A stretch of 7,173 bases of DNA from a virus (lineage: Duplodnaviria; Heunggongvirae; Uroviricota; Caudoviricetes): the IMG/VR virus record IMGVR_UViG_2687453466_000006. The stretch is one strand, 5' to 3'. Under the pieces are notes generated by a model, which was not told the DNA's origin, searched no databases, and saw nothing but the letters and a program-made list of their open reading frames with translations. Positions 3,553 to 7,173 of this stretch are shown piece by piece; within the stretch, counting starts at the first letter, position 1; every line of letters begins with the position of its first letter. A program made the translations under genes and the position numbers.

Positions 3553-3583
3553 TTGCATGAGTTGCCCATCGATATGGTCAGCT

Positions 3584-4045
3584 CTATCTGCACTGCTCAT
3601 TAATATACTTCTGGGTTCCTTCCAGTTGTTTTTGCATAGTGATCAGCCTCTCTCTGAGGGTGAAATAATCCCGTTCAGCGGTGTCTGCCAGTCGGGGGGA
3701 GGCTGCATTATCCACGCCGGAGGCCGTGGTGGCTTCACGCACTGACTGACAGACTGCTTTGATGTGCAACCGACGACGACCAGCGGCAACATCATCACGC
3801 AGAGCATCATTTTCAGCTTTCGCATCAGCTAACTCCTTCGTGTATTTTGCATCGAGCGCAGCAACATCACGCTGACGCATCTGCATGTCAGTAATTGCCG
3901 CGTTCGCTAGCTTCAGTTCTCTGGCATTTTTGTCGCGCTGGACTTTGTAGGCGATTGCGTTATCACGGTAATGATTGACCGCCCATGACAGGCTGACGAT
4001 GATGCAGATAATCAGAGCGGATATAATCGCGGTTACTCTGCTCAC
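3584..4045 (-). CDS. rzpD: Spanin inner-membrane subunit (i-spanin) Rz, 153 aa
   Basis: Near-identical to lambda Rz ([10 protein letters not shown]...QKYINEQCR), with an N-terminal transmembrane segment. Start is placed at GTG 4045..4043, overlapping the endolysin TGA stop (GTGA), by analogy with the lambda ATGA overlap. An alternative GTG at 4057 would give 157 aa. Confidence 0.85.
3643..3825 (-). CDS. rzoD: Spanin outer-membrane lipoprotein subunit (o-spanin) Rz1, 60 aa, embedded in the +1 frame of Rz
   Basis: ATG at 3825..3823. [24 protein letters not shown]... has lipobox VVG|C and a proline-rich C-terminus ([15 protein letters not shown]), near-identical to lambda Rz1. Lies entirely within Rz in a different frame. 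Confidence 0.85.
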
Positions 4046-4539
4046 TGTTGCCCCCACAAACAGACTTCACGCTCAATCTCACGACGAGTCATCAGGCCTT
4101 TCCATTGCTTACCGCCAGCGTATGTCCAGCGACGCAGCTGATCACATGCGCCTTTGATATCGCCCTGGTTTATTTTGCGAAGAAGCGTCGATGTTCTAAA
4201 ATTGCCAGCACCCACGTTGTAAACGAATGAGTAAAGAGCGCCGCGCGTTGTTTCCGGTATATCGACTTTGATATACGGGTTAATTTGTCTGGCGACAGTG
4301 GCAAGGTCTTTATTCAAGAGTGCTTTGCATTCTGCTTTGGTATACGTTTTACCGAGCATGATGTCTTTTCCGGTGTGTCCGTGACATACAGTCCATACAC
4401 CAACAATATCTTTGTATGGTATGTAGCTGACACCTTCCAGACCATCGTTACCACTTGGGCCAGTGATTAACACTGATGCTATAGCAATTGCTCCGCCACC
4501 AATAGCAGCAGCAACGGCTTTTCGTAATGATGGAGGCAT
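4042..4539 (-). CDS. rrrD: SAR (signal-anchor-release) endolysin, phage 21 R-type lysozyme, 165 aa
   Basis: ATG at 4539..4537. The N-terminus has a Gly/Ala-rich weakly hydrophobic segment ([18 protein letters not shown]) typical of SAR domains. E35, D44 and T50 are present at the catalytic triad positions of T4-lysozyme-like R21 (by recollection). Start overlaps the holin stop by 1 nt (TAATG). Confidence 0.93.
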
Positions 4540-4754
4540 TATTCACCTCTCGCAGCCTTGCGCTTATCTTCTTTAATCTTGAAATAAAGGTTTGTCAGGT
4601 ACGTCAGCAGGCCAAATACCAGGCTACCCAGCACACCTATTGCTGCCCACTGTGAGGGAGTGACTTTATCTAGCAGCTGTAAAAACCAGTACCCGGCACT
4701 ACCTGCTGAGGTGCCATAGGCGACACCCGTTGTTAACTTATCCATGGATTTCAT
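4539..4754 (-). CDS. essD: Class II holin (pinholin, phage 21 S-type), 71 aa with dual start Met1/Met4
   Basis: ATG at 4754..4752 and a second in-frame ATG at 4745..4743 (MKSMDK...), the S21 antiholin/holin dual-start arrangement. Two predicted transmembrane segments and a charged C-terminus ([13 protein letters not shown]). GAGGTGG Shine-Dalgarno-like sequence upstream. Confidence 0.9.
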
Positions 4755-4863
4755 AACCCCACCTCGCAGACAAAGCGGGTGTAAATTGAGGGAATACTAC
4801 GAAACGTAACAGACTCGGAGTCAGTGAATAACTCAGGTATTGGGTTATCAGCTAATATCGAGA

Positions 4864-4899
4864 CTCAAAAAATGGAAAAACCCGCTCGACGGCGGGTTT
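4864..4899 (-). terminator. Putative intrinsic terminator oriented toward the lysis genes (tR'-like)
   Basis: The minus strand reads AAACCCGC-CGTCGA-GCGGGTTT followed by TTCCATTTTTT: an 8-bp stem with a 5-bp GC core, a 6-nt loop and a U-rich tract. On the plus strand no T-tract follows it. Lies about 110 nt upstream of the holin start. Confidence 0.5.
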
Positions 4900-4943
4900 A
4901 AGCTGTGTGACGAAGTAACCACTCTTAACAGCATAACCAATTT

Positions 4944-4957
4944 TTTACGTACGTAAA
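4944..4957. repeat. Perfect 14-bp palindrome TTTACGTACGTAAA, 7 bp from the IS5 left end
   Basis: Self-complementary by direct inspection. Overlaps a weak sigma70-like candidate on the minus strand (TTTACG, 16 nt spacer, TATGCT). Confidence 0.4.
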
Positions 4958-4964
4958 CCACTAA

Positions 4965-4980
4965 GGAAGGTGCGAACAAG
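4965..4980. repeat. IS5 left terminal inverted repeat
   Basis: GGAAGGTGCGAACAAG; matches the right end in inverse orientation at 15 of 16 positions. Confidence 0.85.
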
Positions 4981-4987
4981 TCCCTGA

Positions 4988-6013
<1,026 letters not shown>

Positions 6014-6144
6014 AAACTGGGGATAACGCCTTAAATGGCGAAGAAACGGTCTAAATAGGCTGATTCAAGGCATTTACGGGAGAAAAAAATCGGCTCAAAC
6101 ATGAAGAAATGAAATGACTGAGTCAGCCGAGAAGAATTTCCCCG

Positions 6145-6160
6145 CTTATTCGCACCTTCC
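6145..6160. repeat. IS5 right terminal inverted repeat
   Basis: CTTATTCGCACCTTCC; reverse complement GGAAGGTGCGAATAAG. Confidence 0.85.
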
Positions 6161-7173
6161 TAGGGGATTTACCTGATGTCACTTTTGAAGAGGCCTGCCT
6201 AAGATGGCTTGAGGAAAAAGCTGATAAAAAATCTCTCGATTCAGATAAAAGCCGGATTGAGTTCTGGCTTGAACATTTTGAGGGTATAAGGCTTAAAGAT
6301 ATCTCGGAGGCAAAGATTTACTCTGCTGTAAGCAGAATGCATAACAGAAAGACGAAAGAAATATGGAAACAGAAAGTTCAGGCCGCCATCAGGAAAGGTA
6401 AAGAACTGCCTGTTTATGAACCAAAGCCAGTATCAACTCAGACAAAGGCAAAGCATCTTGCCATGATAAAGGCCATTCTCCGTGCTGCAGAACGCGACTG
6501 GAAGTGGCTGGAAAAAGCGCCTGTCATCAAGATACCAGCGGTCAGAAACAAGCGAGTCAGATGGCTGGAAAAGGAGGAAGCAAAACGCCTTATTGATGAG
6601 TGCCCCGAACCACTGAAATCTGTCGTCAAGTTTGCGCTGGCAACTGGTCTGAGAAAGTCGAACATCATAAATCTGGAATGGCAACAAATCGACATGCAGC
6701 GACGAGTTGCCTGGGTGAATCCAGAAGAGAGCAAATCAAACCGCGCCATTGGTGTGGCGCTGAACGATACCGCCTGTAAAGTGTTGCGTGATCAAATAGG
6801 CAAGCATCACAAATGGGTGTTTGTACATACCAAGGCGGCTAAGCGAGCAGATGGAACATCAACGCCTGCGGTCAGGAAGATGCGCATCGACAGCAAGACA
6901 TCATGGCTATCAGCTTGTCGTCGTGCAGGAATTGAAGATTTCCGTTTCCATGACCTCAGACACACCTGGGCAAGCTGGCTGATTCAGTCAGGCGTCCCAT
7001 TATCAGTGCTTCAGGAAATGGGCGGATGGGAGTCCATAGAAATGGTTCGTAGGTATGCTCACCTTGCGCCTAATCATTTGACAGAGCATGCGAGGAAAAT
7101 AGACGACATTTTTGGTGATAATGTCCCAAATATGTCCCACTCTGAAATTATGGAGGATATAAAGAAGGCGTAA
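6161..7173 (+). pseudogene. Phage-type tyrosine integrase, 5'-truncated by IS5 (N-terminal arm-binding region and start codon missing); longest ATG-initiated ORF is 6337..7173 (278 aa)
   Basis: The reading frame of ORF 6337..7173 stays open upstream to the IS5 boundary (in-frame stop only at 6115-6117, inside IS5), encoding ...[55 protein letters not shown], typical of an integrase core-binding domain, with no in-frame start codon. The C-terminal catalytic domain is intact: TGLRKSN (box I Arg), HDLRHTWAS (HxxR), [15 protein letters not shown] (Trp and catalytic Tyr). TAA at 7171-7173. Confidence 0.85.

Follow-up and report, generated by a model that had tools for sequence, protein, structure and literature searches.

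In phage lambda, a constitutive late promoter gives rise to a short terminated RNA, and read-through into the lysis genes S, R and Rz depends on the Q protein. The terminated product, 6S RNA (pR'-tR'), is 194 nt long, and lambdoid pR' promoters are normally located directly after the Q gene. Phage 21 has a Q protein of another, unrelated family: Q of lambda belongs to PF03589, Q21 (PDB IDs: 6jnx and 6p18) to PF06530. The annotated order in the phage 21 genome is -35 hexamer, Q-binding element (QBE), -10 hexamer, transcription start, pause element (+2 to +8) and terminator (+3 to +50). The QBE of Q21 is a direct repeat (PMC6606751), ATTGAGCA/AATGAGCA, placed between the two hexamers at -27 to -12. 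PF06530 also includes Q of phage 933W, and 'the Q21/Q933W family' is used as a group name in a bioRxiv preprint (10.1101/651190). In Stx phages of the Sakai strain, the start of pR' has been mapped by dRNA-seq and the 3' end of its RNA by Term-seq; this RNA has 258 nt and is cut by RNase E at +173, between GU and AUU (PMC7547250).

The stretch of DNA analysed here (the window, 7,173 nt, virus record IMGVR_UViG_2687453466_000006) is the DLP12 prophage of the DH1/DH5alpha/JM109/XL1-Blue lineage of Escherichia coli K-12. Its full 7173 bases match DH1, save for two 1-bp indels within IS5. These two compensating indels, at ~6082-6160 in the 3' part of IS5 and near an A-run, may be assembly errors or strain polymorphism. 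Both junctions of this IS5 are found in 55-56 of 5,426 complete E. coli genomes, mostly of DH1, DH5alpha, JM109 and XL1-Blue type; among the matches listed, all are laboratory strains. Read on the minus strand, which is the late-gene direction, open reading frames and database matches give the order IS5, a 210-nt leader, essD, rrrD, rzpD/rzoD, bor, ybcV, ybcW, nohD and a terminase/tail-fibre-assembly remnant. In this remnant, a 247-aa ORF (55-798) fuses the N-terminus of a terminase large subunit to the C-terminus of a tail-fibre-assembly protein; it is a junction of the degraded prophage, and RefSeq treats it as two partial pseudogenes.

The segment between IS5 and essD (4958-4867, minus strand) is very probably the late promoter pR' of DLP12 with a promoter-proximal intrinsic terminator, together a lambdoid switch of the Q21/Q933W (PF06530) type, orphaned by an IS5-associated deletion. 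The original prediction had proposed a lambdoid pR'/tR' arrangement without Q, and comparison with relatives supports it. Positions 4958-4876 (minus strand) are 77% identical over 82 nt to a region of 933W annotated as 'pR' putative late promoter', 'qut' and 'rho-independent terminator', and the -35 hexamer, 16-nt spacer, -10 hexamer and hairpin stay in register column for column. The -35 hexamer TTTACG (4952-4957, minus strand) aligns with the annotated -35 of 933W pR' (NC_000924, 20666-20693) and with a promoter called by our scan in Sakai Sp5. The -10 hexamer TATGCT (4930-4935, minus strand), 16 nt further on, aligns with TATCAT of both phages. Apart from this -10 difference, 933W and Sp5 share with DLP12 the TTTACG hexamer, the spacer, the position of the -10, the conserved start region AGTGGTTAC and a hairpin with U-tract at about +24 to +50. 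A perfect 14-bp palindrome occupies the same place in both prophage types, reading TTTACGATCGTAAA in 933W and TTTACGTACGTAAA in DLP12. To judge from the sequence, DLP12 has here its own version of a known regulatory module, a switch like the one by which Shiga toxin is controlled in 933W.

The transcription start is predicted at 4923 (minus strand), an A that is the second-to-last base of a conserved TAAGAG and is homologous to position 746 of our Sp5 locus (L010). Positions in Sp5 were assigned via internal distances in the sequence; the genome record has been renumbered since the mapping was published (PMC7547250). When the Sp5 start is set at A746, 7 nt after TATCAT, position +258 is the last T in the T-tract of a second terminator, and +173 coincides with the only GUAUU of the region. 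This start agrees with what dRNA-seq, Term-seq and RNase E mapping have shown (PMC7547250). Homology would then put the DLP12 start at 4923. The block following it, GTGGTTACTTCGTCACACAGCTT (4900-4922, minus strand; +2 to +24), is conserved and spans the equivalent of the 933W 'qut' (4909-4916). In U00096.3 the predicted start presumably lies at about 576,452. The E. coli Term-seq supplements that were covered (PMC7815308) have neither an essD entry nor matching coordinates.

The original prediction also named a minus-strand terminator-like hairpin with a U-tract upstream of the holin, and it is indeed present at 4867-4899. It consists of an 8-bp stem with 5 G-C pairs (AAACCCGC, 4899-4892, and GCGGGTTT, 4885-4878), a 6-nt loop CGTCGA (4891-4886) and the tail TTCCATTTTTT (4877-4867). 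It is the sole stem kept in the centroid fold, at -12 kcal/mol, and it is also detected by the terminator scan, which found one terminator in the 600 bases scanned, compared with 0.6 expected. An Rfam search of 4700-5000 with E up to 10 returned only sub-threshold, terminator-like matches (Trp_leader, isrK and sroH). The terminated RNA is predicted to have ~48-57 nt. The rest of the leader, up to the start codon of essD (4755-4866, minus strand), is devoid of a second terminator. As the 4899-4867 hairpin is the only terminator-like element between promoter and essD, it must act as tR'. The genes that follow are essD (4539-4754, minus strand), the first late gene downstream, coding for an S21-type pinholin with the dual start M-K-S-M, then rrrD (4042-4539, minus strand), coding for a SAR endolysin, and rzpD/rzoD. 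All these lysis genes lie downstream of the promoter on the same strand.

Beyond the first hairpin, DLP12 departs from the Stx phages. Similarity to 933W and Sp5 stops there, and a comparison with StxS RNA revealed no DLP12 homology to its 3' 74-nt segment or to the terminator at +258. In 933W this second terminator is the mapped tR' that yields StxS, whereas DLP12 lacks it and, unlike in the 933W arrangement, its lysis genes begin 110 nt past the hairpin. The Sp5 hairpin homologous to the DLP12 terminator is located at +24 to +52 (L010 769-797, the second terminator being at 973-1003), yet the published RNA has 258 nt. This first hairpin of Sp5 is either inefficient, or its short product went undetected. 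Because the 258-nt RNA passes the homologous hairpin (PMC7547250), the hairpin is no complete block, and that of DLP12 may leak too. The pR'/tR' reading needs a qualification here: at least part of the transcription in Sp5 continues past the first hairpin, and it is the second terminator, at +258, that has been mapped as tR'.

The individual signals are modest. The weak sigma70-like candidate of the original prediction, TTTACG, 16 nt and TATGCT overlapping the palindrome, is present as described (4957-4952 and 4935-4930). Its hexamers match the sigma70 consensus in 4/6 and 4/6 positions (8/12), with a spacer within the range of 16-18 nt. A promoter scan requiring 9 of 12 matches did not call the pair, and the window contains 39 sites with equally good hexamer matches. 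With an 8/12 match and IS5 DNA upstream, the promoter may be weak in the DH1/DH5alpha lineage, which counts against the pR' interpretation. The same holds for the initial transcribed region, in which no clear sigma-dependent pause element was recognised. The candidates there are (T)AAGAGT at -4 to +3 and the invariant GTGGTTAC at +2 to +9, to be compared with TAAGCTG at +2 to +8 in phage 21. The palindrome TTTACGTACGTAAA (4944-4957, minus strand; -34 to -21 from the predicted start) overlaps the -35 hexamer and was foreseen correctly together with the beginning of IS5 7 bp beyond it, at 4965. It is the only perfect 14-bp palindrome of the window, and 0.46 such palindromes are expected per window by chance, at least one being seen in 37% of simulated windows. 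One could regard all these features as chance matches in AT-rich intergenic DNA beside IS5, each of them taken singly being within chance expectation. As palindrome, hexamers and terminator are each of this kind, their significance comes wholly from homology and conservation. Comparative data refute the chance explanation, which we regard as extremely improbable: the features stay in register across ~100 loci, the hairpins vary in sequence yet still pair, and the dyads remain symmetric.

The arrangement resembles that of phage 21 and of lambda to different degrees. Phage 21 shares with DLP12 the Q family PF06530, QuuD (the Q protein of intact DLP12) being distantly related to Q21, and the whole layout of promoter, start-proximal terminator (annotated at +3 to +50), S21-type pinholin, SAR endolysin and spanins. 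The comparison with phage 21 suggested in the original prediction holds for the layout. It does not extend to the DNA, which cannot be aligned and has no real sequence similarity, nor to the QBE: that of phage 21 is a direct repeat between the hexamers, while the candidate in DLP12, at -34 to -21, is a conserved inverted repeat. A QBE of the phage 21 type, (A/T)TGAGCA in two copies, is missing, as there is no TGAGCA within 4924-4964. With lambda, DLP12 shares the logic of the switch, but there is no sequence similarity between lambda and the DLP12 module. QuuD is 77% identical to Q933W; it matches PF06530 with E 3.5e-53 and detects the Q21 structures at E 7.6e-7.

Viral contigs scanned for TGNTAAGAGTGGTTAC gave 120 loci, about a dozen of them being chance matches in coding DNA. 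Wherever a genuine copy of the module is preceded by enough DNA, this DNA encodes, on the strand of the module, a Q homologue that shares 43-100% identity with one of four Q queries. Many loci have a gap of only tens of bp between Q and the module (it is 22 bp in 933W, where the module directly follows Q), and loci with inserted cargo have one of ~630-2930 bp. In DLP12-type elements it amounts to ~1.68 kb and contains a porin gene; quuD of intact DLP12 is 1.7 kb upstream of the promoter, or 2.9 kb when IS5 is included. In contrast to 933W, intact DLP12, PA-2 and many relatives thus carry a reverse-oriented porin gene, nmpC/lc, between quuD and the promoter. We also considered a pR' directly next to quuD, with the hairpin being a porin-related element or a secondary terminator. 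This was rejected, since the annotated pR' of 933W is a homologue of the module and the module occurs with gaps from tens of bp to ~2.9 kb; moreover, in Stx2a_1447 a convergent gene ends just 22 bp from the stop codon of Q, so there is no room for pR' at that place.

The leaders downstream of the start support the role of the hairpin. A hairpin followed by four or more consecutive T, the last of them at +47 to +61, is found in 45 of 48 distinct leaders, formed by 26 different hairpin sequences, and two of the three exceptional leaders have a hairpin with an interrupted T-run. As hairpin and T-run are kept across differing leaders, the DLP12 hairpin represents a conserved promoter-proximal terminator.

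The cargo between Q and the late promoter (L006 1884-3447; L007 2990-3436; L002 2554-3636) differs among phages. It is the porin in DLP12 and PA-2, and other reverse-oriented genes in Stx2a_1447 and PhiR40_1. Three proteins encoded by the reverse-oriented cargo of L006 and L007 had no match in Pfam. The gaps measure 0.6-2.9 kb, and moron genes seem to have been inserted repeatedly at the junction between Q and promoter.

The presence of a porin in this position raises the question of whether the segment, including a CRP site, belongs to the upstream control region of the divergent porin gene nmpC/lc; palindrome and hairpin would then be incidental. In intact DLP12 it does lie inside the 573-bp divergent nmpC-essD intergenic region, nmpC being transcribed away from essD and toward quuD, and GenBank record J02580 (PA-2) annotates a CRP site (1067-1087) equal to window 4903-4923. 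We consider this interpretation very unlikely. The segment is 363-463 bp away from the nmpC start codon, and the U-tract of the hairpin is present on the essD strand only. The annotated CRP site has just one good half-site (TGTGA-N6-AACCA compared with the consensus TGTGA-N6-TCACA), and 933W has CGTGG in place of TGTGA. About 80 bp (4958-4876) recur in phages without a porin, downstream of a QuuD homologue and reverse-oriented cargo, and the block is conserved in the absence of any porin gene in 933W, Stx2a_1447, PhiR40_1 and dozens of contigs, which makes the CRP assignment doubtful. The window contains no porin gene. The original prediction had named a porin promoter as the finding that would speak against it, and the conservation of the module in many phages devoid of porins shows otherwise. 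In the predicted late transcript, the CRP site of the PA-2 record, which dates from 1986, corresponds to +1 to +21.

Published work on this operon concerns essDp, a sigmaE-dependent and Q-responsive promoter (Rueggeberg et al. 2013, 2015, as cited in PMC7918800), which belongs to the same operon and answers to the same Q protein as the proposed pR' of DLP12. If the lysis cassette were driven by essDp, ~520 bp upstream of essD and beside the start of nmpC, the TTTACG/TATGCT pair would be inactive and the hairpin a mere terminator or attenuator of upstream transcripts, left alone here after deletion of essDp. RpoE control of essDp is attributed to Rueggeberg 2015 in PMC7918800. The 'regulatory region' was cloned as -121 to +650 (PMC7918800), and the primers map to positions 3567 and ~4337 of our MG1655-type DLP12 locus (L001), which puts the +1 of essDp at L001 3688; a sigmaE-like GAACTA-N16-TCACT is found just upstream of it. 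The 8/12 match of the DLP12 hexamers to the sigma70 consensus also favours this explanation. What relatives share, even those phages in which nmpC and the DNA upstream of it are missing, is nevertheless the 80-bp module and not the region of L001 3688, and the module homologue in Sp5 has a start consistent with published mapping. We therefore consider exclusive control by essDp unlikely; besides, essDp and pR' are not mutually exclusive. The pR'/tR' reading is nonetheless qualified on this side too, as the published sigmaE promoter has its +1, derived from the PMC7918800 construct, 354 bp upstream of the predicted pR' start, in DNA deleted from the window.

Genomic SELEX with RpoS holoenzyme has a peak between insH and essD, near the start of nmpC, at MG1655 576032 (PMC5493296). 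The portion of the RpoE table that was covered has no essD entry.

In the relatives, the palindrome changes in sequence but keeps its place. All of 40 distinct upstream variants have a dyad-symmetric element with its centre at -27.5 or -28, although the sequence of this element varies; examples are TTTACGTACGTAAA (with QuuD), TTTACGATCGTAAA (with Q933W), GCGTACGC, GCGGTCCGC, TTCGTTACGAA, TGTTATAACA, TGGAATTCCA and TGTCATGACA. When Q proteins are clustered at 80% identity, 13 clusters result, and each is accompanied by one type of dyad core or its close variants, whatever the cargo size and downstream sequence, an association to which physical linkage contributes. One Q cluster combines 11 gap sizes and 12 downstream types, always with GCGTACGC. 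Symmetry that outlasts sequence change and tracks the type of Q is what a Q binding site would look like, and the dyad at -34 to -21 is thus a candidate Q-binding element of DLP12. We give roughly even chances to a broader proposal based on these comparisons: that the dyad centred at -27.5 and overlapping the -35 hexamer would be the QBE of the QuuD/Q933W branch, read as an inverted repeat; that it would exist in at least eight specificity classes (cores ACGTACGT, ACGATCGT, GCGTACGC, GCGGTCCGC, TTCGTTACGAA, TGTTATAACA, TGGAATTCCA and TGTCATGACA) co-varying with Q across 0.6-3 kb of reverse-oriented cargo; and that the junction between Q and pR' would be a preferred insertion site of lysogenic-conversion genes. 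If so, conversion genes such as porins, transcribed against the late direction, would escape Q control. This covariation of dyad and Q type across the family, together with the recurrent reverse-oriented cargo between Q and promoter, is the more interesting by-product of the analysis. The comparative set offers a testable candidate DNA site for antiterminators of the Q933W type, which control production of Shiga toxin 2.

Two loci, L017 and L074, have the same L006-type Q and the same GCGTACGC dyad but different downstream leaders, that of L017 being identical to the DLP12 leader. They look like recombinants in which the pairing of Q and dyad has been preserved.

By analogy with the family, the DLP12 switch would work as follows. 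Sigma70 RNA polymerase would start at ~4923 and, without Q, would stop at the hairpin and U-tract (4899-4867), releasing an RNA of ~50 nt. With QuuD, whose binding site is probably the dyad at -34 to -21, polymerase would be modified near the promoter and would read through into essD-rrrD-rzpD/rzoD. Late transcription of DLP12 thus most probably starts between the inverted porin gene and essD, ~170 nt before the latter, and neither beside quuD nor at the published essDp.

In the lineage of the window, this switch has lost its upstream part. IS5 (4965-6160, plus strand) starts with GGAAGGTGCG, has its transposase pointing away from the promoter, abuts position -42 and replaces all DNA upstream of -41. 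The tetranucleotide at 4961-4964 (-41 to -38), which reads CTAA or, in late-gene orientation, TTAG, is the usual IS5 target; it is present as a single copy in MG1655-type DLP12 (L001 4001-4004), 363 bp before the start codon of nmpC. The opposite edge of the IS5-associated deletion is formed by the integrase gene intD without its N-terminus (6161-7173, plus strand). A simple insertion of IS5 was not supported, as there is no 4-bp target duplication: CTAA is present on one flank and CTAG/TAGG on the other (4961-4964 and 6160-6164). The lack of a duplication agrees with the deletion documented in XL1-Blue, which extends from intD codon 51 nearly to essD and is accompanied by IS5 (PMC11148124). 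The deletion in the DH1/DH5alpha lineage took out quuD, nmpC, the sigmaE promoter essDp and everything else upstream of -41. At the surviving edge, palindrome, both hexamers, start and terminator are intact, and native AT-rich upstream DNA is swapped for that of IS5.

IS5 has the same orientation relative to essD as the IS5 residing in nmpC of MG1655-type strains. Its flanks and orientation fit two successive outward deletions from this resident copy, or recombination between separate copies.

The late unit without Q is accordingly an orphan created by deletion, not another kind of element. We assume that K-12 has a single QuuD-family gene. A Q gene is missing from the window (tblastn, E > 0.1), as had been noticed from the open reading frames, and from the DLP12 locus of DH1 (locus annotation; PMC11148124). 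With quuD and essDp gone, the lysis genes can be reached only via leak-through of the terminator, either from pR' or by read-out from IS5, and some leak is plausible given that the homologous hairpin of Sp5 is partly passed. In DH1, DH5alpha, JM109 and XL1-Blue the promoter and terminator remain, but the antiterminator and the sigmaE promoter described in the literature are lost, which makes these strains natural controls when expression of the DLP12 lysis genes or biofilm and vesicle phenotypes are studied.

Two minor features of the leader deserve mention. In its predicted fold, the Shine-Dalgarno region of essD (GAGGTGGGG) is part of a hairpin just before the dual start (4755-4790), which recalls the structures controlling dual starts of S genes. 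In copies of the PA-2 and 55989 type (L002 and L005), a G-to-T change breaks one pair of the terminator stem (alignment A1, column 183), the best hairpin reaching ~-6.7 compared with -10.9 kcal/mol in our terminator-finder script, and a 16-bp insertion, CTGCTTTTTTGCGATA, is found later in the leader (alignment A1, columns 265-280).
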